A stretch of DNA of 20,000 nt from an uncultured virus (IMG/VR IMGVR_UViG_3300028833_000012) (lineage: Duplodnaviria > Heunggongvirae > Uroviricota > Caudoviricetes): the IMG/VR virus record IMGVR_UViG_3300028833_000012; one strand, given 5' to 3'. The notes under the pieces are model-generated. The model saw only the letters and a list, made by a program, of their open reading frames with translations, was not told where the DNA came from and did no database searches. Below, piece by piece: positions 1 to 20,000 of this stretch; position 1 is the first letter of the stretch, and each line of letters opens with the position of its first letter. A program made the position numbers and the translations under genes.

Positions 1-252
1 GAGCTGTGGAGCAACCCCGGCGAGATTGTTCTGACCCCGTTTATGGGGATCGGCAGCGAGGCCTACATGGCTGTCAAGCTGGGCCGCAAGGCAATCGGGA
101 TTGAGTTGAAGGAAAGCTATTTCCAACAGGCCGTCCGCAACGTGGAAGATGCGGCACACAAAAACCAGATTGACATCTTCGAGATTTTACAGCAGGTTTC
201 GGAAAATACGGAGGTTACGGATGCACGAGATGAAGCTGGGGAGTCTGTTTGA
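1..252 (+). CDS. N4/N6 DNA methyltransferase, C-terminal part (5' end outside window)
   Basis: Frame 1 reads ELWSNPGEIVLTPFMGIGSE...GRKAIGIELKESYF: SAM-binding motif I (FxGxG) and GIE at the C-terminus, as in beta-class MTases. Confidence 0.85.
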   Translation, partial: ELWSNPGEIVLTPFMGIGSEAYMAVKLGRKAIGIELKESYFQQAVRNVEDAAHKNQIDIFEILQQVSENTEVTDARDEAGESV

Positions 253-277
253 TAAGAGCAAAATGGCATGCCAATGA
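221..277 (+). pseudogene. N-terminal remnant of a C5-cytosine methyltransferase
   Basis: SD GGAGG at 210-214, then ATG 221: MHEMKLGSLFD-KSKMACQ*. MKLGSLFD matches the usual Dcm start (LGSLFDGxGG) but breaks off before GxGG. Confidence 0.4.
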
Positions 278-330
278 CAGAGACAACGGCGGACTTGAGA
301 TTTTCTGCGAAGTCGAATCGGAGGATGACG

Positions 331-540
331 ATGCTCCATAACGTAAAAATCACACCAATTGATGATGGCCACTACGCCGTAGAACTTGACGGCAAACCTG
401 TCAATGGCGTGACGGATGTGAAGATCACGATGTCGGTTGATAGTTTGCCGGTCGTATGGATGTGGGTCACTGCCAGATCCGTCGATGTCGAACTGTTGAA
501 CGCGGACGTTGAAATGGCGAACAGCAAGGAGAACGAATAA
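331..540 (+). CDS. hypothetical phage protein
   Basis: GGAGG at 320-324 before ATG 331; stop TAA overlaps the next ATG. Confidence 0.7.
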   Translation: MLHNVKITPIDDGHYAVELDGKPVNGVTDVKITMSVDSLPVVWMWVTARSVDVELLNADVEMANSKENE

Positions 541-988
541 TGCTTAACCAAGGCATGATGACATCCAACACGGACGAATGGGAGACGCCTCAATGGCTGT
601 TCGACCAGTTGAACGCTGAGTTTCACTTCACACTTGACCCGTGCAGCACAGACGAAAATGCTAAGTGTGAAAAGCACTACACCCGAAAAGATGATGGCCT
701 CACAAAAGACTGGTCGGGTGAGGTTGTCTGGTGCAATCCTCCATACGGAAAGCAGCTTCCGTTGTGGGTGGAAAAGTGCGCAAAACACGCAGCCGGGGGG
801 GTACAGCGGTAATGCTTATCCCAGCCAGGACAGATACCATGGCGTTTCACAAGTGGATATACGGCAAGGCCGAAGTACGGTTCCTTCAAGGGCGGCTCCG
901 GTTCGGCGATGCTAAGAATAATGCACCGTTTCCAAGCATGATAGTTATCTTCAGGGAGGGATATGATGGCAAAGGTTTGGTGCAATGA
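540..988 (+). CDS. dam: phage DNA N6-adenine methyltransferase (Dam-like), split by a frameshift at a G7 run (795-801)
   Basis: DEWETPQWLF, FTLDPC and WCNPPYG in frame 540..812; VMLIPARTDT, FLQGRLRF and APFPS continue in the -1 frame to 988. Confidence 0.85.
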
Positions 989-1220
989 CACCGACTGCTG
1001 GTACAACAACGGCAGGAAGTGCAAAGCGAAAGAGATCGCCGTGTTTGACGGCGAGTGCATCAGTTGCCGGTACGGCAAGCCTGAGAAGGGCGACAAGCGA
1101 CTCAGCCGTGACGCGGAGCAGGTCCGCAAAGACCGGGAGGCCAAGCGCGTGTCGAGCAAGATCATGAAGGACATGCTGGAGCGGATGAACGGGGAACTGA
1201 AGGGGGACAAGAAATCGTGA
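963..1220 (+). CDS. small Cys-rich hypothetical protein
   Basis: SD GGGAGG; CxxxxC...C...CxxC; overlaps both neighbours. Confidence 0.7.
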   Translation: MMAKVWCNDTDCWYNNGRKCKAKEIAVFDGECISCRYGKPEKGDKRLSRDAEQVRKDREAKRVSSKIMKDMLERMNGELKGDKKS

Positions 1221-1549
1221 CACTGAACGAGTACCAGCACTTGGCGGCACGGACCATCCGGACGGAGATGGGGTCTGACGCCATGATGAACCACGCCCTG
1301 CACGGGATGGTATCGGAGGTCGGCGAACTGCACGGCCTGCACCAGAAGGTATACCAGGGCCATCCGATGGACGAGGAACACGCGAAGAAGGAAGTCGGTG
1401 ACGCTCTCTGGTTTATCGCTGAATACTGCACCGCGCACGGGTGGGAACTGAACGAGGTCGGACAGATGAACATCGACAAGCTGAAGGCACGGTTTCCTGA
1501 CGGATTCTCTGAGGAGCGCAGTCTGCACCGGGCGGAGGGGGACGTATGA
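1217..1549 (+). CDS. MazG-like nucleotide pyrophosphohydrolase
   Basis: MTLNEYQ, ALHGMVSEVGE, KEVGDALWF, NIDKLKARFPDGF; GTG start in a GTGA overlap. Confidence 0.85.
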   Translation: MTLNEYQHLAARTIRTEMGSDAMMNHALHGMVSEVGELHGLHQKVYQGHPMDEEHAKKEVGDALWFIAEYCTAHGWELNEVGQMNIDKLKARFPDGFSEERSLHRAEGDV

Positions 1550-2172
1550 TCGAGATTGAAACGCTGAAAGTGAGTGGCTTCGGTCCGGCCTTGGTCGGAA
1601 TGCGAAACCCGCTGGACAGTTGGTCCAAGAGCGACACAGTAAACGCCAATACGGACAACGCCATCCAGATCGGCGATGCCGACAAGGATCTGTCCATCCG
1701 CCTCCAGAAGGCCGGTCCGGAACACTGCAAGCATCTGCGGATGGTGACAGTCTACGCCGACATCACCGCGCCGCTGTACTGGTACAAAGAGGCTGACACT
1801 TACAGGGCCGGGGTTGAGAAGGTGAGCTGCTCAACCATGCACACCATCACCAAGAAGCCGTTCGACATCACGATGTTCAGCCATGAGCACCTGACGGTCC
1901 GGTCAACCAACAGCCTGCAAATGACCATCGACACGCTGAACGACTACCGGACGTCCTATCTCAACGCGGACAGCGCAGAGGACAAGAAACTGTTCTGGTG
2001 GCAGCTGATCCAACTGCTCCCGACAAGTTTCAACCAGCGTCGAACCTACATGTTCAGCTACGCCGCGCTTCGGAACATTTACCGCCAGCGTGAAGGGCAC
2101 AAACTGGATGAGTGGCACAGATTCCGGGATTGGTGCGAGTCTCTTCCGGAAGCCTGGATGATTACAGAATGA
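1546..2172 (+). CDS. ThyX-like (flavin-dependent thymidylate synthase-like) phage protein
   Basis: GMRNP..SW.KSD, H.KHLR, APLYW.KE.DTY, SCSTMH, QLLP.S.NQ.R, R.GHKL.EW. The canonical ThyX RHR motif is absent. Confidence 0.65.
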   Translation: MIEIETLKVSGFGPALVGMRNPLDSWSKSDTVNANTDNAIQIGDADKDLSIRLQKAGPEHCKHLRMVTVYADITAPLYWYKEADTYRAGVEKVSCSTMHTITKKPFDITMFSHEHLTVRSTNSLQMTIDTLNDYRTSYLNADSAEDKKLFWWQLIQLLPTSFNQRRTYMFSYAALRNIYRQREGHKLDEWHRFRDWCESLPEAWMITE

Positions 2173-2231
2173 CACGGCCCGGATTAAGCGCCGACAGAGA
2201 GCGAGCATCCTGGGAGAATGACAGACTATTC

Positions 2232-2386
2232 CGGCGCGGCCACGCCCGCATGGGGGATATGTGACTTTCGACATCGCCGCCGGGCTCGGCACCAGAGGGT
2301 CGTTTGAAGGACTCAACAAGGCTTTGATTGTCGGCCTGTTCCCGTTTTGCTACCTCTGGCCCGCCGCAAAGCCCGACCGTGCGCCG
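2232..2386 (+). ncRNA. candidate structured RNA (long nested hairpin); strand assumed from the operon
   Basis: Nested complementary segments CGGCGC/GCGCCG, CGGGCT/AGCCCG, CGGC/GCCG, CCAGAGG/CCTCTGG, AACA-GGC/GCC-TGTT in a 280-bp intergenic gap. Confidence 0.35.
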
Positions 2387-2452
2387 CGCATCTTATCTTT
2401 GAGATCGCGAAGAAAAGTTTGCGATAGCGAACAAAAACAGGAGGAGAACATC

Positions 2453-3127
2453 ATGAAAGAAATCCCGTACATCGAGCCGAGAATGCTGAAACTGACCCAG
2501 ATCGACGAGTTCCACTACGCGAAGGTCGTGGACGTGGAGCGGCTGCTTCACGACATGCGGAAGGAAATCTACGACAACGCGGAGTACGAACTGAACGAGG
2601 ACGGCACGAAGAAGTGGCACCTTACCGAGGCGGAGAGTGCCGTCATCAATGCGCTGTTCTTCGTCGGCTCCTGCGTCCGCAAGCAGCTGATGGTCACCTG
2701 CGAGACCCCGGACGAAATCCGCGCGATGCACGAGCGCATCCGCAACATGTACTACGCCGGGAAATACTACCTCAGCGAAAAGAGCGAGGACGAGAACGGC
2801 AAACCGACGCTGATCTACTTCCGCAAGTACTGCCCCGGCCTGATGGCGTCGCGGCTGAAGGAAGAGGGCAAGACCGAGGAGGAAATCGAGGAGGCCATCA
2901 CCGAGCATCAGGGCGACCCGGCATTCACCGATGTCAGCAAGTACGCGATGCTGTTCGAGAGCCTGGAAGAGGCTGAGAGCCACAAGACCTACCTCAACCA
3001 CAACTTCAAGACCCATCTGGAAGTGCATCCGGCCTTCCTGCTCAACGGAAAGCGCTGCCGGCAGATGCTCGACACGCTGCTGAAAGGCGGTGCGGCAGAT
3101 GGGGAAGCTGAACGGCAGGAAGATTGA
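2453..3127 (+). CDS. hypothetical protein (224 aa)
   Basis: SD AGGAGG before ATG 2453; GC3-rich codon usage. Confidence 0.8.
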   Translation: MKEIPYIEPRMLKLTQIDEFHYAKVVDVERLLHDMRKEIYDNAEYELNEDGTKKWHLTEAESAVINALFFVGSCVRKQLMVTCETPDEIRAMHERIRNMYYAGKYYLSEKSEDENGKPTLIYFRKYCPGLMASRLKEEGKTEEEIEEAITEHQGDPAFTDVSKYAMLFESLEEAESHKTYLNHNFKTHLEVHPAFLLNGKRCRQMLDTLLKGGAADGEAERQED

Positions 3128-9226: not shown

Positions 9227-11146
9227 GTGAGCGGAAAGCAAGACGTGCCGACAGAAGTCCAGCAGGCAAAGCCGCTCGTCCCGCAATGGACGCTGGAAGA
9301 CTTCATGAGCGAGAAGCCCTACGCCTATCTCTACGCCTACAAGGACAAGAAGTTTCTGCTCCAGCAGATGCTCAACCGTGCGCAGGCGCAGGCTAAAGCG
9401 CTGAAATTCTCCGGTTTCATGCGGATGTGGAACAGCTATGTCGAGGCGAACAGTCCAAAGCAGACCATCCTCGGCGACTACCAGACCATGTTCCCGGAAC
9501 AGCCGCTCCAGTTGCGCTCCGGCCACTACAACTGCGACGAGTTTGGCGTGTCCTACACCGGACGTATGGGCGAGTCCGTCACGGTGTGCTCCCATCCGAT
9601 CATGCCGGTCATGCGCGTGGTCAATCTCGACAGCAAGGAGGAGAAAATGCAGATCGCCTTCCGGCGCGGGAGCAAGCAGAAGGAGTGGAGCACCCCCATC
9701 ATCTCCAAGGACGTGCTGGCCAGCAGCCAGAAGATCATCAGCCTTGCCAGACAGGGCGTGGCCGTCAACAGCGAGAACGCCAAGGACCTCGTCAGCTACT
9801 TGACCGACATGGAGAGCATGAACTACGACGAGATCCCGACACAGAACAGCACCGGCCACCTCGGCTGGCTCCCTGATGGACAGTTCTCTCCGTACTGTGA
9901 AGGCGTGGTCTACGACGGCGACAATCCGGAATTCAAGCGCATCTTCGACGGCTTCCGCGAGACCGGCAGCGAGAGCGTCTGGATGGGCATTGCCAAGGCC
10001 ACCCGGAGCGGGAAGAGCGTCCCGGCACGGCTGGCCCTGGCGGCGTCCTTCGCGGCCCCGCTGGTCAGCATCCTCAACGCCCTGCCGTTCTTCGTCCACA
10101 TCTGGGGTACACAGGGCTGCGGCAAAACTGTCGGCCTGATGCTGGCGGCAAGCGTCTGGGGCAACCCGGAAGTCGGCAAGTACATCAAGACGTTCGGCGG
10201 TACCAAGGTCAGTCAGGAATTGTACGCATCATTCTGCGGGAACGTGCCGATCATCCTCGACGAGCTGCAAATCATGGCAGACCGCAAGTCTTTTGACGAC
10301 ATCATCTACATGCTCTGCGAGGGCGTGAGCAAGGGTCGCGGTGCGAAAGACGGAGGACTCCAGTTACAGCGGCATTGGTCGAGCACCATCATCACGTCCG
10401 CAGAAATGCCCATCGTGCAGAGCAACAGCGGCGGCGGCGCGGCCGTCCGGACCATCGAAGTCAACTACGGCGGAGAACCGCTCTTTGAGGACAGCCGGAC
10501 CGTGGCGGAAACCCTCAAGCAGAACTACGGTTTCGCGGGCCGCAAGTTCATCGAGTCGCTCAAGGATCCGGAAACACTTCAAGCGCTCCGGGACATTCAG
10601 AAGCGGTACTACAGCCAGCTCTCCGGCGAGATTCAGGACAAGCAGGTGCTGGCCGCGTCCATCCTTCTGGCTGCCGACAAACTGGCTGATGCCGCCCTGT
10701 TCCATGACGGCAAGGCGCTGACGGTCGAAGAGATCAAGCCCTACCTGATCACGCGCGACCAGGCCGATGTCAACGTGCGGGCCTACAACTGGCTGTGCGG
10801 CTACATCGCCGGTAATCCACGCCGGTTCGACGCCAACGAGGAAAACCCCGGCGAGGTCTGGGGCGTGATCGAGAGCGGCATCTGCTATTTCAACCGCACT
10901 TTCTTCGACCGCGTGATGCACGCAGAAGCCTTCTCACCGTCCAGTTTCCTGACATGGGCCGACCGCAACGGCAAGATCATCCGGGAGTATTACGGTAAAA
11001 ACAGTGGGAATAACCGGATGACCGTTCGGAAAAAGGTCGGCGGCGCGAAGGTCGCCTGCGTGGCACTCCTCTTGCCGACCGACGATGATAAGGCACCAGT
11101 CCCGGTTATGATGACGCCTGTTCAGGATGACGATATGCCCTTCTAA
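9227..11146 (+). CDS. DUF927-domain replicative helicase/initiator (Cch-like)
   Basis: HLGW, Walker A GTQGCGKT, ASVWGNP, Walker B IILDE, G..KGRG.K.G, NYGFAG. Confidence 0.8.
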   Translation: MSGKQDVPTEVQQAKPLVPQWTLEDFMSEKPYAYLYAYKDKKFLLQQMLNRAQAQAKALKFSGFMRMWNSYVEANSPKQTILGDYQTMFPEQPLQLRSGHYNCDEFGVSYTGRMGESVTVCSHPIMPVMRVVNLDSKEEKMQIAFRRGSKQKEWSTPIISKDVLASSQKIISLARQGVAVNSENAKDLVSYLTDMESMNYDEIPTQNSTGHLGWLPDGQFSPYCEGVVYDGDNPEFKRIFDGFRETGSESVWMGIAKATRSGKSVPARLALAASFAAPLVSILNALPFFVHIWGTQGCGKTVGLMLAASVWGNPEVGKYIKTFGGTKVSQELYASFCGNVPIILDELQIMADRKSFDDIIYMLCEGVSKGRGAKDGGLQLQRHWSSTIITSAEMPIVQSNSGGGAAVRTIEVNYGGEPLFEDSRTVAETLKQNYGFAGRKFIESLKDPETLQALRDIQKRYYSQLSGEIQDKQVLAASILLAADKLADAALFHDGKALTVEEIKPYLITRDQADVNVRAYNWLCGYIAGNPRRFDANEENPGEVWGVIESGICYFNRTFFDRVMHAEAFSPSSFLTWADRNGKIIREYYGKNSGNNRMTVRKKVGGAKVACVALLLPTDDDKAPVPVMMTPVQDDDMPF

Positions 11147-11436: not shown

Positions 11437-11527
11437 TTGTAAGTAGCGGCGTACACCAGAACACCACAAAACGCCATCAAAACACCATCAACACACCATC
11501 AAAACCACCAGAAACGGAGGCGATATC

Positions 11528-12310
11528 ATCAAAACCCTGATCGCAGTCCCCTGCATGCAGACCGTTCCGACAGCGTTCCTGCGCTCGCTGGAGGGCATGC
11601 GCCGTCTGCCGGACACCTACACGTCCATCAGCCAATGCACCCTGATCCATGACGCCCGCAACGAGTTCGCCAGCATCGCCATTCAGCACGGCTTCGACCG
11701 CATCCTCTGGATCGACAGCGACATGACATTCCCGCCTGACCTGCTGGAAAGACTGAGCAAGCACCTCGACAACGGCAAGTTCATGGCATGCGGTCTCTAC
11801 TTCAAGCGTGTCCTGCCGACCGGACCGGTGATCTACTGCCGTCAGGAGCGCCAAACCGACCCGGTACTCGGCGAACACATCCGCCCGGTGCCCTACACAG
11901 ACTACCCGCGCAACCAAACCTTCGAGATCGACGCCTGCGGTTTCGGTGCCGTCATGACGGACGTGGCTCTTGTCCGCGCTGTCTGGGATCGCTACGGTCC
12001 GCCCTTCACACCATACCTCAACATCGGCGAGGACCTGTCTTTCTGCTGGCGCGTCCGGGAGATGGGGCAGAAGATCTGGTGCGACTCGTCCATCTCTGCC
12101 GGACACATCGGCACCGCCATCTTCGATGAGGGCACCTGGATCGCCCAGCAGCGTGCTGTACCAGACAGGAACGACCATCAGAACGGTGACATTCAGAACG
12201 GTAATGACATTCAGAACAGCGGTGCCCATCCGGACGGTGAGGATGACCATCAGAGCAGTGACGGCATTCAGAACGAAACCAACCAGACCAACCACACAGA
12301 AGGGACGTGA
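11528..12310 (+). CDS. GT-A (GT2-like) glycosyltransferase, probable ATC start
   Basis: (I/M)KTLIAVPCM, ARN, WIDSDMTF (DxD), GFG, GEDLSFC, GHIG; GGAGG sits 7 nt before an in-frame ATC at 11528. Confidence 0.8.
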   Translation: MKTLIAVPCMQTVPTAFLRSLEGMRRLPDTYTSISQCTLIHDARNEFASIAIQHGFDRILWIDSDMTFPPDLLERLSKHLDNGKFMACGLYFKRVLPTGPVIYCRQERQTDPVLGEHIRPVPYTDYPRNQTFEIDACGFGAVMTDVALVRAVWDRYGPPFTPYLNIGEDLSFCWRVREMGQKIWCDSSISAGHIGTAIFDEGTWIAQQRAVPDRNDHQNGDIQNGNDIQNSGAHPDGEDDHQSSDGIQNETNQTNHTEGT

Positions 12311-12792
12311 CCAACACGAACTACTATGACGGCTATGTTGACCATATGTGGCGATTCTACGTCCGCAATCAGACCGCCACACTCGACACACTCGGCAACG
12401 CTTCACGCGAAAACTGGACGGTCTGCGACAGCATCTACCACAAAAGCAACCCGTTCCGCCAAGAAATCCTATCAGCATACTACGCCCCCTATTTCACCGG
12501 CACCGCCCAGGATAACCTGACCGTCTACTGTGAGGAACACAACGTCTCCACCGAGCAGGCCAACAACGCCCTCCGCTCCATCCGTACCATCACCGCTGTC
12601 GAGCGCGGCCTGCTTGACCGCCTGCCGCCAGAGCAGCGCAAAGCATTCCGCCATGCTCCGGGTTCAGGCAAGAGGACCGTTGTCACCAGTAGCGGGCTGA
12701 TCGAAATGACCGGTAAGACTGAGTTGACCGGGCAACATTCAGAACAAGACAACCAACATTCAGAAACTACAATAGCCCATACAGAGGAGTGA
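12307..12792 (+). CDS. phage hypothetical protein, possibly a late-transcription regulator
   Basis: GTGA overlap; YY..YV.H.WRFY...RGLL. The regulator role is inferred only from its position upstream of terS. Confidence 0.55.
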   Translation: MTNTNYYDGYVDHMWRFYVRNQTATLDTLGNASRENWTVCDSIYHKSNPFRQEILSAYYAPYFTGTAQDNLTVYCEEHNVSTEQANNALRSIRTITAVERGLLDRLPPEQRKAFRHAPGSGKRTVVTSSGLIEMTGKTELTGQHSEQDNQHSETTIAHTEE

Positions 12793-12798
12793 TTCAGA

Positions 12799-13365
12799 AT
12801 GCCAACGAGAAAACCGGAACAGCTTCCGGACGATGTCGTAAATACCGTCGTCAAACGCCACCGTGGTTCCTTTCCAACCGAACTGGACAACATCCACGTT
12901 GACCCAGGCGACAATTCCCGCTTCGTCCGCTACGCTATGGCCGCTTGGGACTTGCCGCCTATCGACATCTCCGACCCGCAACAGGTCCGTGACCGTATCA
13001 TTATGTATTTCCAACACTGCGCCGATAACGACCGCAAACCTCAGCTTACCGGCATGGCTAACTGGCTCGGCGTGTCAAGAGATACACTTAATTCTTGGAA
13101 AAGGGGAGAGTATAGGAAAGATACGCACTCCGACATTGTGCAAAAAGCTGTCAGTGCGCTTGAAGAAATGTGGGCTGACTACATGATGAACGGCAAGGTC
13201 AATCCGGCAAGCGGGATCTTCATTTCCAAGAACTGGTTTGGATATGCCGACACGCAGAACATTGTCGTCACACCAAACAATCCGCTCGACAACATGAGCC
13301 AGGACGATGCCCGCAACAGATACGCTAACGCTCTGCCTGAAATCGCTGACGATGGCAACGAGTAA
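12799..13365 (+). CDS. terS: terminase small subunit (P22 gp3-like)
   Basis: YF..C...RKP.LTGMA.WLGVSR.TL..W HTH; NPASGIF..KNWFGY.D. Confidence 0.8.
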   Translation: MPTRKPEQLPDDVVNTVVKRHRGSFPTELDNIHVDPGDNSRFVRYAMAAWDLPPIDISDPQQVRDRIIMYFQHCADNDRKPQLTGMANWLGVSRDTLNSWKRGEYRKDTHSDIVQKAVSALEEMWADYMMNGKVNPASGIFISKNWFGYADTQNIVVTPNNPLDNMSQDDARNRYANALPEIADDGNE

Positions 13366-13388
13366 CCAGCAAGCCCGGTAGCCATAAG

Positions 13389-13498
13389 AAAGCAACCTGT
13401 ACCCGACGAGACGTATATATAAGCTATAGCGTACAATATATATAACAAAATGTACGTTATAAATATATATATATGTCTATAACGTGTCAGGTTGCTTT
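13389..13498. repeat. AT-rich long hairpin/cruciform just after terS
   Basis: AAAGCAACCTG/CAGGTTGCTTT, AGACGTATATATA/TATATATATGTCT, TATAGCGTACA/TGTACGTTATA. Confidence 0.7.
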
Positions 13499-14138
13499 TG
13501 CCTATTGACTGGCTTCTGGGCGTGCAGTCTGTACCGCAACTCTGGCCGTCCGGGTGGTGTGATGGCGGCTTGTCTTCCTCCGGGCAGCGTCCGTGCTGGG
13601 CGGCGTTGACCATCAGAAGGTGCGTTTGGCGGCTGGCCCGGTTTGGGCGGCGGCGTGACTGTGCAGCGGGAACGAGACCGGCAGCACTCGCGCCCTTGGA
13701 TGGCAAAGCGACGGCGGTTCGGACCGTGACGGTTGGACAGGACCGGCGGCGGAATCATCCACCCCTGATTGCAAAACGCAGCAGAAGCGGACGATGCGCC
13801 CAGGAATCGCCGCTATGCTGTCCAGAATGCGCCAGGATCGTCTCGTGGCGTTTGGCGTGGGAAATATCCATCAGAAACAGGAAGCGCTCAGAAGGGCGTT
13901 TTTGTGGCTCTATGAGCGTGTCGCTTATAACATGGTTGATAACGCGGTTTATAGCCGGGTTGATAACGTCAAAACAGAATAGCGCAATCAGAATTGATTT
14001 TAGGGCGGTCAGAAGGGGCTTGCGAGCGTCTCGCTGTGTTTAGATTGGTTTGTGTCCATCTGGATAGTGAGCGCGTCAGAAGGGCGTTATTGACAGAATG
14101 CGGGCGTGGTGCGTCAGAACGGGCGGATTGTGCGCACG

Positions 14139-14162
14139 AAAAAAGCCCGCACGGTGGCGGGC
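14139..14162 (-). terminator. intrinsic terminator of the minus-strand operon
   Basis: Minus strand GCCCGC-CACCGT-GCGGGC-TTTTTT, about 20 nt after the last stop codon. Confidence 0.8.
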
Positions 14163-14183
14163 GGTGTGGGCGATTGGCGGTGG

Positions 14184-14597
14184 TCAAACAACGGTGAAAT
14201 TCTCATTGTACTTCTGGCGATGGCGTTCACAGTAACGGTTTACAAATTCCTGCGGATCGGTGATGCCCTCAGCATGGAGGTCTTCGCGGATGTCGTCGTC
14301 CATCAGGGATACGGCGCTGTCCAGGCTTACGAAGTCGCCGTTGACGTCAACAAGGCGTTCCGCGAGCTGCCACGCATAAGCGGTGACGAAGTTCGGCGTG
14401 AAGGTCGTGATGACGCGCTCACCGTCGAAGATCGGGCAGTCGTAGAGGTCGTCACAGGCGCGGTCGGCCATGCGCTGCTTGTCAAAGGACAGGTCGCGGG
14501 TGCTTGTGATTTCCTTGCCGTTGACCACAATGTGACGGTCGCCAATCAAGGATACGGTGACTGGGTTCTGGTTTTCGTCATAAGCGCGAATGATCAT
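14184..14597 (-). CDS. AcrIC5-like anti-CRISPR domain fused to an ~80-aa unknown N-terminal domain
   Basis: C-terminal VNGDFVSLDSAVSLMDDDIREDLH...QEFVNRYCERHRQKYNENF resembles AcrIC5 as recalled (NG..IDFDAAVNLMDAELREELH...QEFLDAY..AH..KF..EEF). Confidence 0.7.
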   Translation of the reverse strand: MIIRAYDENQNPVTVSLIGDRHIVVNGKEITSTRDLSFDKQRMADRACDDLYDCPIFDGERVITTFTPNFVTAYAWQLAERLVDVNGDFVSLDSAVSLMDDDIREDLHAEGITDPQEFVNRYCERHRQKYNENFTVV

Positions 14598-14644
14598 GAT
14601 GTTGGCTCCTTTCATTTTCGGGTGGCTTGTTATTCAGAATCTTA

Positions 14645-14809
14645 TCACGCAGGCAGCACGCTGTCAAGGGTGACAGTGACGCGCTGGCCAGGATAGCGGG
14701 CGTGAATCCATCGGCGGAGGCGGCTTTCCGCCTCGCTTGGATCGGCGGCAAGGCTGTTCCAGATGCCGCTGTGGTGACGGGTGCGCCAGGTCAGGATGTA
14801 GTACTTCAT
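14645..14809 (-). CDS. small hypothetical protein (54 aa)
   Basis: SD GGGAG; MKYYILTWRTRH. Confidence 0.65.
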   Translation of the reverse strand: MKYYILTWRTRHHSGIWNSLAADPSEAESRLRRWIHARYPGQRVTVTLDSVLPA

Positions 14810-14835
14810 GGTGTTATCTCCCTTCTTTGTGTCGG

Positions 14836-15111
14836 TCAGGTAAAGCAGAAGCGGCATGCGGTGGTGGTCTTGGTGTACTTGGCGGCGATGTCAGGCAGCG
14901 CCTTTTTCAACGCGGCGGTGTCGATGCGGCTGCTGGTGACGGTCTTCCAGGTGGCTTTCCATCCGGTGCCGGTCAGGATCTCGTCGCCGCTGTCAATCAT
15001 GGCGGCTTTGAATTCGTCCCGGATTGCGTCGGCCTCGGCGTTAAGCTCGTCAATCAGAGTCAGGATCTCACGCAGGCGGGCGGCTTTCGGGTCCAGGTGT
15101 TTCATGGTCAT
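14836..15111 (-). CDS. coiled-coil phage protein resembling the C-terminal part of YqaJ-type proteins
   Basis: SD AAGGAGG; coiled coil, then WKATWK..TSSRIDT.ALKK..P....Y.K....RF. Confidence 0.65.
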   Translation of the reverse strand: MTMKHLDPKAARLREILTLIDELNAEADAIRDEFKAAMIDSGDEILTGTGWKATWKTVTSSRIDTAALKKALPDIAAKYTKTTTACRFCFT

Positions 15112-15128
15112 GGTTTTATCCTCCTTCT

Positions 15129-15848
15129 TCAGGCCACGCAGGCCTTGCTTGTCCAATAGTCAATCAGAGCGTTTATCATGTTTTCCGGTATCATAGGCAG
15201 CTGGTAACGGTCCATGCCTTCCGGCGTCATGTAGTAGCCCTGGCCATATCGTGGCAGGTTCTCACAGCCGGACACGCCGAGGATGTTTCTGCTGTCTTGT
15301 GCTGATCGCGTCCTGAGCCCTACTCGCGCATCCATGTTGCACTTGATTTCCGTTGGGATCACTTTGGCAAGCGGGCACTGTGTCGCTGCGATCAGGTGTA
15401 CACGGGCCGCGCGGCCAAGCTGGCATATCCGCTGAATCAGGGGCTGCACTGTTTTTTTGTCGGTGAGCATCAAGTCTGCCAGCTCGTCAATCAGAATATA
15501 GACGTGACTGCCGCTGTAGGATCTCGCGCCGGTGCGCTGCATTTCAGAAAACCGGTCTTCCATTATCTGGACGGCATAGCGTAATGCTCGCGCTGGTTCG
15601 CCTGGTTCGCTTGCATAGGTCAGGACGTGCGGCAAGGCCTTGTACTGTACCAGCTCGACGCGCTTGGGGTCAATCAGAATCAAACGGCACGTTGCAGGGC
15701 TATGGTTCATCAGCAGCGCGTGGAGGATCCCATTGATCACAACGGACTTTCCGCTGCCGGTCGCGCCTGCAATCAGAAGGTGCGGCTGTTGCGCCATGTT
15801 GTAATACAGAGGGCTGTACTGACCGGCTGGTGTGCGGTATGTTGGCAA
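15129..15848 (-). CDS. stand-alone FtsK/SpoIIIE-family ATPase domain
   Basis: HLLIAGATGSGKS, LIDPKRVEL, ILIDELADLM, LGRAARVHLIAATQ, E.L...G; TTG start after AAGGGGTG. Confidence 0.88.
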   Translation of the reverse strand: MPTYRTPAGQYSPLYYNMAQQPHLLIAGATGSGKSVVINGILHALLMNHSPATCRLILIDPKRVELVQYKALPHVLTYASEPGEPARALRYAVQIMEDRFSEMQRTGARSYSGSHVYILIDELADLMLTDKKTVQPLIQRICQLGRAARVHLIAATQCPLAKVIPTEIKCNMDARVGLRTRSAQDSRNILGVSGCENLPRYGQGYYMTPEGMDRYQLPMIPENMINALIDYWTSKACVA

Positions 15849-15851
15849 GTT

Positions 15852-16043
15852 TTACACCCCCTTCCGTGGAATTGCACGGTAGAACGCCATGTATCCGCAT
15901 CTGTTGGATTTGGACCGCGTGGTTTCAATCAGAACATAATCTTTTTTCCATCGCCGTATGGAATTGTAGTGGCGGCTGTAGGTGGTTGGAAAATGATAGT
16001 ATGGGTTGCTGCCGTCCTCGAATGTTATGTGATAGCTATACAT
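15852..16043 (-). CDS. small hypothetical protein
   Basis: SD AAGGAGGT; MYSYHITFEDGSNPY. Confidence 0.7.
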   Translation of the reverse strand: MYSYHITFEDGSNPYYHFPTTYSRHYNSIRRWKKDYVLIETTRSKSNRCGYMAFYRAIPRKGV

Positions 16044-16046
16044 GGT

Positions 16047-16205
16047 TCAGACCTCCTTGATCTCTTCAACGGTGAACCAGGGGCAGCCGTGGGCCTCGGC
16101 AATGGTATATGCTTCCCAGAATCCAGGTTCTGTTTCGCTCTGCACGGTGGTTTCGTATGTGATTTCATTGGCGTCAGCAGAACAGACGATTAACCAGGTT
16201 TTCAT
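16047..16205 (-). CDS. small acidic hypothetical protein (52 aa)
   Basis: MKTWLIVCSADANEITYETTVQSETEPGFWEAYTIAEAHGCPWFTVEEIKEV*; not in the ORF track. Confidence 0.65.
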   Translation of the reverse strand: MKTWLIVCSADANEITYETTVQSETEPGFWEAYTIAEAHGCPWFTVEEIKEV

Positions 16206-16222
16206 TGTTGCGCTCACTTTCT

Positions 16223-16246
16223 CCCCGTATAGCCGGATAGGTCAGC
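16223..16246 (-). ncRNA. small pseudoknot-like motif, copy 2
   Basis: GCTG-ACCTATC-CGGC-TAT-ACGGGG. Confidence 0.45.
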
Positions 16247-16252
16247 TTGTTT

Positions 16253-16807
16253 TTACAGTCGAATCGGTAAGATTACGCCAACACCGTACTCAGAGCATGC
16301 CCAGATCGGAGAGAGAGATTTTTTACTGCGGTCGATGTAGAAATCGGCATCCGGCAGTGCCGTCAGCATGTCGCGGAGATATGCCGAATTATATACCGGC
16401 GAATCTGCATACCTTCCGGCACGGAAGCAGAGTGAACTTTTGCCGTGACTGAACGTGCCTGATTTTACGTCAGCCTCCGTAAATTTCAGAAGTTCGGAAT
16501 CCTCATTCGTCAGGTCGTATACGTTTTTCAGTAGCTTTTCAACAGTTTTGTGCATATTTGCCGTCCGTGCCTGATCTTCCGGGCCTGCAATGTGAATCCC
16601 GTAAAGCGCCGGGACGCCCTCAGCGGGTACCTTGGCGAGCGCGATTGCCCGATAACCGTCAGTTTGAATGTAGCCGATTGGTGAATCCCAGCCGTTGATC
16701 GGCTGATTGATTCGTTCCCCGGCAGCGTTGTACCGGGTAACTCTTGCAGAGTTTGCAAAGATCTTGCGAATGACTGCGGCGGCTTTTTTGTCAGTATAGC
16801 GCGGCAT
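16253..16807 (-). CDS. miniature beta-clamp-like protein
   Basis: TDGYRA, YNSAYL.D, SP and C-terminal VILPIRL mirror DnaN motifs; SD AAAGGAG. Confidence 0.55.
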   Translation of the reverse strand: MPRYTDKKAAAVIRKIFANSARVTRYNAAGERINQPINGWDSPIGYIQTDGYRAIALAKVPAEGVPALYGIHIAGPEDQARTANMHKTVEKLLKNVYDLTNEDSELLKFTEADVKSGTFSHGKSSLCFRAGRYADSPVYNSAYLRDMLTALPDADFYIDRSKKSLSPIWACSEYGVGVILPIRL

Positions 16808-16822
16808 AATGTCATCTCCTTT

Positions 16823-17419
16823 TCAGAATTTCCACGACTTGGTGTGAATGTGGTTCAGGTTGCTTAGCAAAATTCCATTGTGCTCTGTAAATTTCCCGAT
16901 GGTGACAATCTCTCCGGTTCCGTCCATGATTGCCAGTCTAGACCAACCGATCAGAGATTCGATCTCGGTCAGAAGTGCGGCGTCAATGTCGCTGGTTGTG
17001 CGCATCATGCCGGACAAATACCCGGCGACGAATAGCGCGGTGTCGCTGTAGTTGTGTTCGGCGGGATCGGCAGTGACCGGGATAATGCCGTTGTGCGCAA
17101 TGCCAACGGTGCAACGGACATCCAGCGCCTTGGTAATGGAAAGCCTCGACGTCAGTGGAAACGGCTGGGTCATCTCAGGATTTACACCGGCCTGTGTAGA
17201 AATGCGGAAATGATAGACAACCGGATCGGCGGCGGTCAGGCGCTCAGACCGGACGGCCCGCCAGAAATCATCAAACCACATGAACCCCTTATGTATTTCC
17301 ACACGTCCGCCACGGGCCAGCATATAGCCGGCCCCGTGCGGGTTGTGGTTGAACATGGCAAGCAGCTCGGCCTTGGTGGGTTGCCGCGTGCCGCGTTCAG
17401 AAACTGCAATTACACACAT
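16823..17419 (-). CDS. class II (Ntn) glutamine amidotransferase
   Basis: N-terminal MC, NPHGAG, HFRIST, PF, HNGII, SDT. Confidence 0.88.
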   Translation of the reverse strand: MCVIAVSERGTRQPTKAELLAMFNHNPHGAGYMLARGGRVEIHKGFMWFDDFWRAVRSERLTAADPVVYHFRISTQAGVNPEMTQPFPLTSRLSITKALDVRCTVGIAHNGIIPVTADPAEHNYSDTALFVAGYLSGMMRTTSDIDAALLTEIESLIGWSRLAIMDGTGEIVTIGKFTEHNGILLSNLNHIHTKSWKF

Positions 17420-17423
17420 GTGC

Positions 17424-17879
17424 TCAACCTCCGATCACAAATTCGCAAATGTCGCCGTTCGGTTTTTTGCAAAGTTCGCTGTAAATTTTCAAAATATCCT
17501 CGTCGGTGATCGACTCCGCCATTTTACACAGGTCTTTGTAATTCTTTCGCGGGTGCTTTCCGCCGTCCATGTCCCGCTGATGTCCGAAACCAGAGGAGAC
17601 CATAACGCCGGGCGTGCTGCTGGGCCGCCAGAAGGTCAGATCCATCTCGATATGGTAGTGCCCGGCAGGCGTCCGCCAGCGGCAGCCGTACTCGTTTACG
17701 TGATGTTCGACGTTTTCAACATACCAGAGTTTAGCGCGGAGCTCGCCGCCGTCCTTGGTCTCGATGCTGCGATAGATGGTCTTTTCACTCCACAGTACAT
17801 AGTATTTCCAATCAAAATGCCAGTTGCCGGGTGCCTGATTCTCCAACTTGTTTGCCTGTTCTCTCGTGATGGTTGCCAT
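17424..17879 (-). CDS. hypothetical protein (151 aa)
   Basis: SD GAGGTG before ATG 17879. Confidence 0.75.
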   Translation of the reverse strand: MATITREQANKLENQAPGNWHFDWKYYVLWSEKTIYRSIETKDGGELRAKLWYVENVEHHVNEYGCRWRTPAGHYHIEMDLTFWRPSSTPGVMVSSGFGHQRDMDGGKHPRKNYKDLCKMAESITDEDILKIYSELCKKPNGDICEFVIGG

Positions 17880-17913
17880 TGTTTTTTCCACCTCTCACTG
17901 TAATTTGCGGTTT

Positions 17914-17978
17914 TCCCGCGACGCCCTGTAAATTCAGAGCGTTTCGGCTGGGAACCATCCAGCACTCGTCAGGCGGGA
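17914..17978 (-). ncRNA. type I hammerhead ribozyme
   Basis: UCCCGC-CUGACGA-G(U)GCUGG-AUGGUUC-CCAGCC-GAAA-CGCUCUG-AAUUUA-CAGGGCG-UC^GCGGGA: full catalytic core and three stems. Confidence 0.9.
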
Positions 17979-17980
17979 TT

Positions 17981-18178
17981 TTACAGTTGGCCTTGTAAAA
18001 CCTCATTCAGAAACCAGTCGTAGCCAGGGACGCGGGACCCGTCCGGGCGGATATACTCGACACGGAATGTTTGCGGGTTCATCCGAACGGCGACGCCGGG
18101 AGCGTGCTGCGCTTCCGCAAGCTTGACGGCGGCACGCTCGTGCGGAAATTGCTTGAAGCTGGGATTGAACATTGTCAT
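17981..18178 (-). CDS. small hypothetical protein (65 aa)
   Basis: SD GGAGG. Confidence 0.7.
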   Translation of the reverse strand: MTMFNPSFKQFPHERAAVKLAEAQHAPGVAVRMNPQTFRVEYIRPDGSRVPGYDWFLNEVLQGQL

Positions 18179-18204
18179 GGTTTACACCCTCCACTGTATT
18201 TTTT

Positions 18205-18227
18205 GCCCGTGTTGCCGATAGCGCAGC
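18205..18227 (-). ncRNA. small pseudoknot-like motif, copy 1
   Basis: GCTG-CGCTAT-CGGC-AAC-ACGGGC. Confidence 0.45.
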
Positions 18228-18240
18228 GGTTTTTTACGGT

Positions 18241-18591
18241 TTACGCTGTAATTTTCTGCACCTGATCCCTTGTAAACCAGAACGCCTTGCGGAGATAGCA
18301 GCGGCCGCCCGTGACTGTTTCGCCGTCCGTATCGCCGTCGCCGTCTCCATCAGAATCGGCCCGGCGTCCGCTCTTGTACTTCCAGACCGGGAACGCGGCC
18401 CGCGCGTGTTCGCCCTTTTTGACGATAAAGCCGAGAGACTTCCAGCCATTAAAAGTGTGAATTTCTTCCGGCAGTGCAATCCTGACCGGTTCGCCGTTTT
18501 CGTTTTCGCCGTCCATGTATCCGGCAATTTTCAGAACGCCTTCCTGCATCAGCCGTACAGACTCATTCAGAATGATTTGATTGTTTGTCAT
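18241..18591 (-). CDS. ArdC N-terminal-like ssDNA-binding domain protein
   Basis: HTFNGWKSLGFIVKKGEHA...W....F...QV; lacks the ArdC zincin domain. Confidence 0.65.
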   Translation of the reverse strand: MTNNQIILNESVRLMQEGVLKIAGYMDGENENGEPVRIALPEEIHTFNGWKSLGFIVKKGEHARAAFPVWKYKSGRRADSDGDGDGDTDGETVTGGRCYLRKAFWFTRDQVQKITA

Positions 18592-18635
18592 AGCGCCCGC
18601 CTTCCTTTCTGTTTTTCCGTCGTGTGGTGTAAGTT

Positions 18636-18709
18636 TGCGCTGACTCTGTATTCTTCCGGGCTTGTCACCGGCGGCCGCCATTCAGAAGGTGACCGGCTAC
18701 ATTAGCGCA
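18636..18709 (-). ncRNA. type-P1 twister ribozyme
   Basis: UGCGC-U^AA-UGUA-GC-[CGGUC..GGCCG]-CCGG-UGAC-AAGC-CCGG-AAGAA-UACA-GA-GUCA-GCGCA: P1-P4 and both pseudoknots can form. Confidence 0.9.
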
Positions 18710-18724
18710 CCGGGCCGGGAACCC

Positions 18725-19690
18725 TCAGTCAAGGATCCCCGTTTCCGGCTTCACGTTGTGCTCAATCTCTACCATCTCATGCGGCATGAGCTGTCCTACG
18801 CTGTCAATCCGTTCGGCGACGTACTGATTGCACCCGGAAAATATAGCGGTCACGCTGTCGCACTGTTTCCATGTCAGCCGCTTCACACGGTCCACAAGGT
18901 GGAAGATAATTTCCATCGTTGCGCGGAATGTTTCAAAGTTGCTTTGCCCGCCCACAAGCCGAATCTCAATGCGTCCGCTGTTGTAGTGCCCGAGATTAAA
19001 GCTGCAATGATGGTTTGACATGAAATGGTTAAGGTCCATGCCCTGCGCGTTGAGATACTCCATCCGGTCACAATAGAATGTATCGCCGGTTCGGTTCAAC
19101 AGTCGGCACATGAGCTCAAAGTGACGGTTGATAATGTAATACAGTTTGCGGATTGCCTCCGCTTGATTCTCTTCAGTCGTTCCGAAACATGCGTTTGAAA
19201 TGTTTACGTGCATGCCGCAGTTGCCGGACCGGCTACAGGAAATGCCGAACAGCGGGAAATACTTGTCATACATTGCTTTGAATGCCGGATACATATTGCG
19301 CACGGCCTCTTTTGTCATCGGCATTGTGATGCATTCCGCGCTTGAATCTCCGCCCAAGCTTCCATCGCGCTGCATCTTGAAGAGCCCTGACGGGAAAAGC
19401 GGAAAGATGATACTATCGTAGACATTTGCAAGAATGTTGTCACTGTTGATCCCATAGCATTCCGTCTCAATCTCAACACCGTAACCTTTGACGGGCTTTC
19501 CGGTTTCAAGCGTGCGGCCGTCGTCCTGTATCGTGATCCATCTGTCAGTCGTGCGCAGTTTGAAACCGTTTTCATATCCCATCTGCGCATAGCTTTCGGA
19601 ATGTTCCATGCGGCCGCGGCCGTTGTCATGATAGGCCTGGACGTGTGCAATCCTGACGTCGATTGCCTGTTGATTCTTCTTGCTTGCCAT
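18725..19690 (-). CDS. putative amidoligase (COOH-NH2 ligase, glutamine-synthetase fold)
   Basis: GVEIET, RDGSL, AECIT, CGMHVNI, IEIRL motifs; ATG at 19690 after AGGAAGG. Confidence 0.8.
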   Translation of the reverse strand: MASKKNQQAIDVRIAHVQAYHDNGRGRMEHSESYAQMGYENGFKLRTTDRWITIQDDGRTLETGKPVKGYGVEIETECYGINSDNILANVYDSIIFPLFPSGLFKMQRDGSLGGDSSAECITMPMTKEAVRNMYPAFKAMYDKYFPLFGISCSRSGNCGMHVNISNACFGTTEENQAEAIRKLYYIINRHFELMCRLLNRTGDTFYCDRMEYLNAQGMDLNHFMSNHHCSFNLGHYNSGRIEIRLVGGQSNFETFRATMEIIFHLVDRVKRLTWKQCDSVTAIFSGCNQYVAERIDSVGQLMPHEMVEIEHNVKPETGILD

Positions 19691-19734
19691 TGTGATCCGC
19701 CTTCCTGCCGCTTGTGCGGCCGTCGCTTTGCTAT

Positions 19735-19833
19735 CCGGATATATCCGGCTGACAATGGATATTATACGGATATTTGCCGACTTTAACATACCATAGACGG
19801 ATTTCGTTATGGATAATACGGATAAAATCGGAT
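19735..19833 (-). promoter_or_regulatory. putative promoter/operator region of the minus-strand operon
   Basis: Perfect TATAAT (19766-19761) with no clear -35; palindrome CCGGATATATCCGG (19735-19748); seven GGAT boxes at roughly 10-bp phasing. Confidence 0.55.
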
Positions 19834-19873
19834 TGTTTGCGCTGTTTTATAACTTTTGAGTTTTTGCATACAT

Positions 19874-20000
19874 GATCCGGTTTTTCCGTCTGCGGCTGGA
19901 AGATCCGGTTTTTCCGTCTGCGGCTGGAAGATCCGGTTTTTCCGTCTGCGGCTGGAAGATCCGGTTTTTCCGTCTGCGGCTGGAAGATCCGGTTTTTCCG
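19874..20000. repeat. perfect 28-bp tandem repeat, at least 4.5 copies, truncated by the window edge
   Basis: Unit GATCCGGTTTTTCCGTCTGCGGCTGGAA at 19874, 19902, 19930, 19958 and 19986 (partial). Confidence 0.95.

Follow-up and report, generated by a model that had tools for sequence, protein, structure and literature searches.

In a 20,000-nucleotide stretch of DNA from an uncultured virus of the Caudoviricetes (IMG/VR record IMGVR_UViG_3300028833_000012), hereafter termed the window, we describe an accessory operon of early type in which two self-cleaving ribozymes, a twister and a hammerhead, probably process one transcript into three RNAs and act as insulators of the encoded genes. The window corresponds to bases 29–20028 of the 24,854-base record, which is rated 37% complete, read on the reverse strand. 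The operon is located on its minus strand, to which all operon coordinates given below refer, and comprises twelve open reading frames (ORFs) between positions 19690 and 14184, named g1 to g12 in the order of transcription, with each start codon being preceded by a Shine-Dalgarno (SD) sequence. The presumed promoter is a TATAAT hexamer at 19766–19761 resembling a –10 element, whereas at the distal end an intrinsic terminator (14162–14139), consisting of a stem of six G-C pairs and a T-run, is the only one found on the sense strand of the operon in a terminator scan. The ORF and terminator scans are in agreement with an initial annotation of the same sequence, which had described twelve co-oriented genes extending from a TATAAT to a single terminator, and the order of RNA elements proposed there, namely twister, small motif, hammerhead and second small motif, was confirmed as well. 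Considering the identity of these elements, their conservation, covariation and positions, self-processing into three RNAs appears as the most likely interpretation.

The twister ribozyme, which belongs to type P1 and contains a P3 helix, was assigned to positions 18708–18637 by its match to the Rfam family RF03160 and by its minimum free energy (MFE) fold, and begins 17 nucleotides after the stop codon of the amidoligase-like gene g1. When scanned at the gathering thresholds of Rfam, the window returned zero matches. A second scan of 6.2 kb, which instead applied an E-value threshold, listed seven matches, five of which are noise (E>1), and placed twister-P1 at 18707–18638 with 46 bits and an E-value of 5e-8. 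The helices P1, P2, P3 and P4 are all present in the MFE fold and in the Rfam alignment, the cut site carries the expected AA, the GCC and CAAGCCCGG cores are found, and both pseudoknots are possible, with T1 formed by GC:GC and T2 by GAC:GUC. P1 includes the U preceding the cut site. The low score is explained by T2, where the triplets GAC/GUC replace the consensus CCC/GGG of the family, a compensatory change that is counted as two errors by a nested model. Among 33 unrelated viral loci holding a 17-mer of this variant core, 18 contain, as counted by eye, a GGUGACAAG loop and GAGUC in twister-compatible placement, in some cases as circular permutations of the twister, and none of the 33 shares any gene with the operon. 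The cut predicted by the Rfam model, U18704|A18703, coincides with the site that had been proposed initially.

The second ribozyme, a type-I hammerhead with its core at 17977–17915, was identified by a descriptor and by its match to the family RAGATH-1-hammerhead (RF03152) at 17994–17915, which in the same 6.2-kb scan obtained 33.5 bits at an E-value of 0.0099. Both methods find a complete core consisting of CUGACGA, GAAA and GUC and both predict cleavage at C17920|G17919, again the site of the initial annotation. The pairs adjacent to the core are standard according to published criteria (PMC3088659), with G-C at 10.1-11.1, C-G at 1.1-2.1 and A-U at 15.1-16.1, and they are flanked by a stem I of 5 base pairs, a stem II of 1+5 base pairs containing a bulged U and a stem III of 8 base pairs. 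Stem I starts 4 nucleotides past the stop codon of g3. Both ribozymes thus begin shortly after stop codons and precede genes led by an SD sequence, and each is found only once in the whole 24,854-base record. An Rfam scan had been named as a check in the initial annotation; it recovers both ribozymes at an E-value threshold but neither of them at gathering.

Based on this arrangement, we propose a mechanism where transcription would proceed mainly from the promoter near 19766 and where twister and hammerhead would cleave the transcript at their predicted sites in a protein-free manner. Motifs of both classes are described to self-cleave with a 2',3'-cyclic phosphate and a 5'-OH as the resulting ends (PMC8782182), and clustered hammerheads of prophages, one set of which flanks ardA, cleave in vitro and in vivo (PMC3088659). 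The first product would be a g1 mRNA that carries a 2',3'-cyclic phosphate at its end, the second a 784-nucleotide RNA encoding g2 and g3, which would retain both ribozymes in folded form, the twister at the 5'-OH end and the hammerhead at the 3' end, and the third an RNA extending from g4 to g12 that starts with a 5'-OH. The two predicted cuts would yield precisely the three RNAs named in the initial annotation. Cleavage would uncouple stability and translation of g1, of the g2–g3 pair and of the g4–g12 block, and ribozyme modules would therefore act as context insulators, which permit the expression of swapped-in genes regardless of the sequence upstream. The hairpin located before certain SD sequences, which is described below, would serve a related role without cleavage, as a structure in the 5' untranslated region that sets translation initiation or stability, and together with the clamps found in the same spacers it would provide a defined 5' context for each cassette.

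The distribution of the ribozymes was investigated in relatives of the operon, which we have collected with g1 as query. We obtained 365 relatives of g1 at E<=1e-3 among 868 candidates, 37 of which were aligned, and used the alignment to gather 21 viral, 5 genomic and 57 metagenomic loci, which group into 60 lineages (designated by L numbers) at 95% nucleotide identity. No close relatives were found by exact peptide words of g1, and a tblastn search of g1 against 50,697 phage records returned a single weak and unannotated match. Of the 29 lineages whose sequence extends 1.5 kb or more downstream of g1, 27 contain in this region a homologue of g5, a gene for a glutamine amidotransferase (GATase)-like protein, while the interval between both genes varies from 92 to 3101 nucleotides and is occupied by unrelated small ORFs. 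The conserved backbone of the operon is thus the g1–g5 enzyme pair with a hypervariable cassette in between and further exchangeable small genes behind it, the last of which encodes the AcrIC5-like domain described below.

Ribozymes were counted with a strict descriptor in the 50 lineages containing at least 150 nucleotides downstream of g1. A twister is found directly 3' of g1 in four of them (the window, L053, L051/L085 and L093/L095) and just upstream of g1 in L055, whereas type-I hammerheads are located in the g1–g5 interval of two lineages (the window and L044). In L037, a pistol ribozyme (9691–9756, 49.9 bits) above the Rfam gathering threshold resides between the amidoligase and GATase homologues. 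A recognised twister, hammerhead or pistol ribozyme thus occupies the slot in 6 of 50 lineages. Rfam covered only 33 loci of relatives and assigns 32.1 bits to the twister of L053; in 27 further loci it found nothing more, including seven loci with zero matches at E<=0.5. These scans have to be considered as lower bounds since the hammerhead of L044, which the descriptor finds, was missed by Rfam in a scan of five loci. A covariance model (R1) built from nine phage twisters assigns 39.7 bits to the twister of the window and recovers the same five twister lineages from 61 sources (one per lineage, 374 kb); its sole extra match is weak and partial (14.1 bits) and was discounted.

The pseudoknots of the five g1-linked twisters have been maintained despite changes in their sequence. 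T2 is formed by GAC:GUC in the window, by CGC:GCG in L053 and L055 and by CAC:GUG in L051 and L095, and T1 by either GC:GC or AC:GU. As pseudoknots are not modelled in R1, the complementarity of T1 and T2 is not a product of the selection of sequences. The hammerheads of the window and L044 share a common stem II sequence, in which one G-C pair is replaced by a compensatory A-U pair, as well as an AUGG loop, and the latter begins 3 nucleotides past a stop codon. In these two sequences only, an upstream segment (CCA in the window, CCAU in L044) could pair with UGG or AUGG of loop II, respectively, as a possible tertiary contact between this loop and the stem I side. The spacer after g1 in L106 (1913–2055) contains a twister-like core (GGUUGCAAGUCC ... 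GGAGCA) with complementary T2, a P4 of only 3 base pairs and an unclear T1, which was missed by the descriptor and by R1 and may represent a degenerate or variant twister. As a separate observation, the metagenomic relative L068 carries three tRNA genes (584–960) ahead of its amidoligase homologue, encoded on the other strand.

Besides the two ribozymes, the spacers of the operon contain two copies of a smaller element, a diverged copy A at 18227–18203 (nhmmer E-value 0.07), where pair 6/23 is G-C, and a copy B at 16246–16221, which was detected by blastn-short and nhmmer (E-value 3.7e-10, and 1.2e-08 with a later profile) and carries an extra C at the bulge junction of positions 10/11. Both had initially been described as small pseudoknot motifs. 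The elements are real and constitute two copies of one 25-nucleotide unit, but this unit forms a bulged hairpin, and the flanks did not reveal any pseudoknot partner of the variable loop triplet (45 and 51 observed matches compared to 48.3 and 45.7 in shuffled sequences). The spacers harbouring the two copies (18243–18179 and 16258–16206) fold no better than shuffled sequences (z-scores of 0.63 and –1.0), and recognition of the element stems from comparison: the spacer of copy B is matched significantly by blastn-short in five other lineages, in which protein identity amounts to only about one half. In iterated nhmmer searches, copies were detected on the operon sense strand only, with up to three per locus, preceding unrelated genes. 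The consensus GCUG-N-CC-UA-N-CGGC-NNN-ACGG-GG-A is followed by the SD sequence, and an exact search finds the pattern in at least 119 viral contigs, compared to 4 for the pattern read backward. Five host genomes (about 12 Mb) contain a single match, which resides inside a prophage contig. Rfam 15 has no family over copy B (6.2-kb scan) or over three copies of the element (1.4-kb scan, E<=10), and the motif string was not found in the papers searched, which did not include the motif supplements of Weinberg et al., 2017.

A census of 1.01 Mb of fetched loci provided 149 distinct instances of the hairpin with 97 distinct motif sequences, 84 of which are followed within 50 nucleotides by a start codon with SD sequence, in 63 cases at a distance of 13–16 nucleotides. 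In these 97 sequences, pair 6/23 is found as C-G (86), G-C (8), U-A (1), A-U (1) and G-U (1), and pair 7/22 as C-G (93), G-C (2), U-A (1) and a C-C mismatch (1). Covariation was quantified in an alignment of 43 of 103 distinct 25-mers, composed of all 13 off-pattern sequences and 30 of the 90 on-pattern sequences and including copy A. At both pairs combined, 14 cells are changed on both sides and none is unpaired, the resulting covariation score is reached by 0 of 500 shuffles, and controls with slid positions are 44–64% paired. Outside of the hairpin core, conservation is confined to an A-rich 5' flank and the SD sequence. We have dropped the interpretation of the element as a sigma-70-type promoter since, upon inspection, hexamers and spacing do not fit and since compensatory changes would be unexpected for a promoter. 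The 25-nucleotide element is thus best described as a phage-wide bulged hairpin abutting the ribosome-binding site. It is also present at an unannotated spot (24097–24126) in the genome of the cultured Dorea phage DO134P1 (OP172779.1, L239), 15 nucleotides ahead of a 70-residue hypothetical gene that heads a run of small genes beside a divergent region. Since this phage is an isolate whose host is cultured, the function of the element is directly testable.

A further recurring structure of the spacers is a hairpin closed by the inverted repeat UUACA/UGUAA, which we refer to as a clamp. In the window, pattern matching identifies a UUACA-N8-UGUAA clamp at 17998–17981, which contains the stop codon of g3, is located directly 5' of the hammerhead and is equivalent to the 5' hairpin within the RF03152 match, whereas a relaxed pattern detects a four-pair UACA...UGUA clamp at 18198–18176 with the SD sequence of g3 in its loop. 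In many lineages, the spacers after g1 are composed of such UUACA...UGUAA repeats closing hairpins of varied content. In 60 representative loci (366 kb), the pattern TTACA-N4-40-TGTAA occurs 359 times compared to 12.8 ± 3.9 in shuffled sequences, an enrichment of about 28-fold, and clamps bracketing an SD sequence just before a start codon are found 59 times in sense and 8 times in antisense orientation, compared to 0.1 in shuffles. About a dozen lineages, the window not among them, share a spacer of roughly 100 nucleotides after the amidoligase gene (L064:2382–2487, L073:1855–1961, L078:2279–2385, L047:3652–3752, L043:1411–1512 and further in L080, L065, L063, L109, L039, L036 and L104), in which a GC-rich hairpin is combined with a second, long and perfect one, closed by GGUUACAG...CUGUAACC, and with an SD sequence in a UUACA/UGUAA loop. 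Its MFE amounts to –42 to –59 kcal/mol and it had no Rfam match where scanned.

It is conceivable, although at this stage doubtful, that the hairpin defines an undescribed class of phage-specific cis-acting RNA which, together with clamps and interchangeable twister, hammerhead and pistol ribozymes, forms a host-independent grammar of cistron insulation for shuffled cassettes. If this were the case, each accessory cassette of these gut and rumen phages would bring its own RNA module to fix its 5' context through either cleavage or folding, and cassettes including anti-defence genes could swap between phages yet stay expressed.

Several observations weigh against self-processing of a single transcript. 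The scores of both ribozymes fall below the gathering thresholds of their families (46 compared to 67.2 bits for RF03160 and 33.5 compared to 56.3 bits for RF03152), and P3 of the twister contains an A-C mismatch. The –35 region of the presumed operon promoter is poor upon inspection and its TATAAT is absent from the output of a consensus promoter scan. In the same scan (13000–20000, both strands), 12 promoter-like sites contrast with 5.0 ± 2.2 in shuffled sequences. Six sites are located on the sense strand within the operon, and the best one, a sigma-70-like candidate identified by consensus match only (14667–14639, TTGACA-17-TAAGAT, 10/12 with TG extension), is found just upstream of g12. 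In view of these internal sites, the location of all twelve genes on one transcript is no more than plausible. RNA data are available as contigs from two metatranscriptome runs of one sheep-gut sample, in which ends, strand and level are unreadable. In favour of the proposed mechanism, these contigs cover the operon, in a patchy manner and at low depth, from 14177 to about 19317, whereas the neighbouring segment 13468–14169 has no RNA contigs in either run, although it is entirely covered by DNA runs. One RNA-library contig (18508–18812) spans the cut site of the twister, thus either uncleaved RNA or contaminating DNA exists. At the hammerhead, cover is almost nil in both RNA runs, but a gap in contigs carries no proof of cleavage. 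Among the relatives, 44 of 50 lineages do not contain a recognised ribozyme in the slot, which implies that the enzyme pair does not require one. The synteny in related phages, which the initial annotation had suggested to inspect, thus extends to the g1–g5 pair but leaves the ribozymes optional. Finally, the hairpin is not enriched near ribozymes: 118 motif-selected loci contained two credible twisters, and we have consequently abandoned the idea of a ribozyme-associated element. The subthreshold scores, the contig across the twister site, the internal promoter-like sites and the rarity of ribozymes in relatives could all be accommodated if the ribozyme-like sequences were inactive or irrelevant and the genes were transcribed as a conventional polycistron or from promoters within the operon, with processing by host RNases. 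We regard this explanation as unlikely, since the catalytic cores are intact at every checkable position and compensatory changes preserve both pseudoknots in the different lineages, which would not be expected for decaying sequences.

Other alternatives concern the purpose of the elements or the fate of the RNAs. Ribozymes, hairpins and clamps might mainly serve as cassette boundaries for recombination, akin to the PeSL elements of T4-type phages (PMC2839356), with effects on expression being secondary. This view draws on the variable length and unrelated gene content of the g1–g5 interval and on the position of homology breaks. Blocks of homology shared by lineages terminate at the hairpin in 38 cases compared to 9.8 ± 3.7 at random sites (maximum of 21 in 200 replicates), although these control sites were not limited to gene boundaries, where the joints of phage mosaics are located anyway. 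Moreover, the contig of a relative diverges at 16250 and contigs of the source sample break at 16245–16274, at the edge of copy B. Recombination, however, requires identity rather than compensatory pairs or intact catalytic cores, and the fixed distance of 13–16 nucleotides between hairpin and start codon points to translation, which makes a predominant role as boundaries rather unlikely. A dependence of cleavage on translation, where a ribosome at the stop codon of g1 or g3 would cover or unwind the adjoining ribozyme or clamp, so that cutting would report on translation of the preceding gene or be timed by it, is suggested by the hammerhead stem I following the g3 stop codon at 4 nucleotides, by the clamp that includes this codon and by the 3-nucleotide distance in L044. 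We consider it improbable, as it is derived from spacing alone and as the twister starts 17 nucleotides past its stop codon, which is beyond the footprint of the ribosome. The chance that the 784-nucleotide g2–g3 RNA is circularised by a host RtcB-type ligase into an exonuclease-resistant mRNA appears very small. A ligase step of this type is known from the engineered Tornado system, and both the end chemistry of the middle fragment and the location of the twister 5' and the hammerhead 3' of g2–g3 would suit it. However, relatives usually contain either twister or hammerhead alone, and no back-splice joint was detected among the joints of contigs, which show such joints poorly. In addition, clustered hammerheads were examined for circular or spliced products and none were found (PMC3088659). 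Self-processing into three linear RNAs thus remains our preferred interpretation.

The proteins encoded by the operon were characterized by family searches and structure prediction. The first gene, g1 (19690–18725, 321 residues), encodes a protein resembling glutamine synthetase-like amidoligases. Its AlphaFold2 (AF2) model (pLDDT of 88.4) finds glutamine synthetases and YbdK-type ligases as best Foldseek matches (probability 1.0, TM-score of about 0.4) and 70% of its atlas neighbours belong to Amidoligase_2 (PF12224). Six residues (E73, E75, H161, R240, E242 and R244) do not vary among 37 sequences and are presumably catalytic. The amidoligase label of the initial annotation can be retained at the level of the fold only, since none of the 37 aligned members matches a Pfam model, including PF12224, at E<=1. 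For g5 (17419–16823, 198 residues), the assignment as class-II (Ntn) glutamine amidotransferase was substantiated by its N-terminal cysteine, with an MC[IV][IV] start in all 25 homologues and MC in 26 of 26 sequences, and by its AF2 model (pLDDT of 93.8), for which Foldseek retrieves glutaminase domains of GlmS, PurF and EgtC (probability 1.0, query-normalized TM-scores of 0.5–0.6). Searches of PDB sequences with profiles of g1 and g5 retrieved nothing usable.

Two further labels were confirmed. The TTG-initiated g9 (15848–15129, 239 residues) contains an FtsK/SpoIIIE-type ATPase domain (PF01580, E 1.8e-38; phrog_1358, E 1.7e-63), and g12 (14597–14184, 137 residues) combines an N-terminal extension with an AcrIC5-like C-terminal domain, where residues 83–134 match PF22147 (E 1.9e-15, 57.2 bits, cut-off 27) and the sequence aligns to residues 4–58 of 60 in 7yhr_A (E 1.6e-7). 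The ArdC-like and mini-clamp proteins of the initial annotation are less secure. The g2 protein (18591–18241, 116 residues) is weakly similar to the N-terminal domain of ArdC (PF08401, E 7e-4), with a score of 20.2 bits below the cut-off of 22.6 and a match restricted to profile positions 68–116 of 123, and it matches phrog_25027 (E 7e-11) and phrog_7245 (E 0.0023) but no PDB sequence. ArdC proteins consist of an N-terminal domain binding single-stranded DNA and a C-terminal metalloprotease domain. In g2, Pfam did not find a second domain, and the metalloprotease domain is thus missing. For g6 (16807–16253, 184 residues), structure rows of the atlas suggest a possible beta-clamp-domain-like fold, which we treat as a lead, as its TM-scores to DNA_pol3_beta clusters (0.60–0.62 by query) are all under the bar and no family matches. 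The remaining ORFs are g3 (18178–17981, 65 residues; with SD, only phrog_16214 at E 0.005), g4 (17879–17424, 151 residues; no family match, with a homologue directly after g1 in L036), g7 (16205–16047, 52 residues), g8 (16043–15852, 63 residues), g10 (15111–14836, 91 residues), which resembles the C-terminal part of a RecE-like PHROG (phrog_434, E 7e-11), and g11 (14809–14645, 54 residues). For g7, g8 and g11, there were no matches, and none of the six small ORFs of 52, 54, 63, 65, 91 and 151 residues has an informative match in family, PHROG, NCBIfam and PADLOC searches. Among the operon proteins, the FtsK domain is the only name provided by NCBIfam, and the FtsK ATPase is the only match of PADLOC. 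The description as anti-defence operon is therefore an association rather than a finding, since only one AcrIC5-like domain and a subthreshold match to the ArdC N-terminal domain are behind it.

The plus strand of the window encodes proteins of phage replication and packaging, as identified in family searches, including fragments of a Dam-type methyltransferase, MazG, a DnaN-type clamp, a DUF927 primase/helicase and the small terminase subunit. Window DNA was detected in sheep-gut runs, and relatives of g1 occur in contigs of Faecousia, Pseudoflavonifractor phocaeensis and genomes of further Clostridia/Eubacteriales. The hosts of the phage are rumen bacteria of the Oscillospirales type. At 43–812, adjacent short ORFs of 69, 90 and 90 residues each match parts of DNA methyltransferase families, and this gene may be fragmented or mis-split. 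Neither Pfam nor PHROGs provided a match for a minus-strand ORF of 333 residues (11480–12478), which is located between primase/helicase and small terminase. Immediately ahead of the operon promoter, at 19874–20000, a 28-nucleotide unit is repeated in at least 4.5 perfect tandem copies, which extend up to where the assembled record terminates. The DNA depth over this array is 272–504 compared to about 72 alongside, suggesting a longer, collapsed array, which possibly constitutes iterons or an array of regulator-binding sites.

Phage operons punctuated by ribozymes, the idea that they process long transcripts and hammerheads flanking ardA were all described by Perreault et al., 2011 (PMC3088659). 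The operon organization, the processing concept and the link to anti-restriction are thus known since 2011, and the window is a clean further case. As in the prophage loci of that study, ribozymes are placed between genes of one phage unit and flank variable genes or blocks. The window differs by the combination of a twister with a type-I hammerhead, the amidoligase/GATase context and the Oscillospirales host, and its cleavage is a prediction. In relation to its Rfam family RF03152, the hammerhead shares the type-I topology, the 5' hairpin with UAAAAU after it and the complete core, whereas its stem II is longer and contains a bulged U. The hairpin, the clamp grammar and the alternation of three ribozyme classes in the amidoligase–GATase interval were not found in Rfam 15 or in the papers searched, which did not include the Weinberg 2017 supplements. 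In a review, the common gene neighbourhood of twister and hammerhead ribozymes is described as known but unexplained, and the role of twister, hammerhead and pistol ribozymes in bacteria and phages is called largely elusive (PMC6765202). The occurrence of three unrelated ribozyme classes in one slot supports the published view that it is the cutting that matters and not the fold, and the context of two enzyme genes with alternating ribozymes sharpens the question of their role but leaves it unsolved.

At the protein level, LUZ24- and PaP3-like Pseudomonas phages (PMC3890496) also possess genes for amidoligase and class-II GATase, which are located a few genes apart in the early region with an HNH gene in between. 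Their proteins contain 385 and 486 residues, compared to 321 and 198 residues in the window, whose proteins miss the Pfam models. In the case of AcrIC5 (7yhr, PF22147), the similarity concerns the C-terminal 53 residues of g12, whereas the preceding extension of 80 residues is absent in AcrIC5, and inhibition of type I-C CRISPR-Cas by g12 is putative. The PeSLs of T4-type phages resemble the elements of the window as short conserved intergenic sequences among variable small genes in hyperplastic regions where homology breaks (PMC2839356), and the breaks found at the hairpin would fit cassette shuffling as described in these phages. However, PeSLs are DNA signals combining promoter and terminator, whereas the window contains ribozymes and a covarying hairpin beside the SD sequence. 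We infer that the closest analogy for the operon modules as natural insulators is provided by RiboJ, a synthetic insulator consisting of a ribozyme and a 23-nucleotide hairpin before the ribosome-binding site (PMC6206723). In both cases, a self-cleaving ribozyme, a hairpin or both are placed directly before the ribosome-binding site, an arrangement that in RiboJ neutralises the upstream context. RiboJ is engineered, whereas for the phage elements an insulating function is deduced here. If they were indeed natural insulators of expression, this would help to explain how phages freely swap accessory and counter-defence genes, and would provide ready-made engineering parts for Clostridia.

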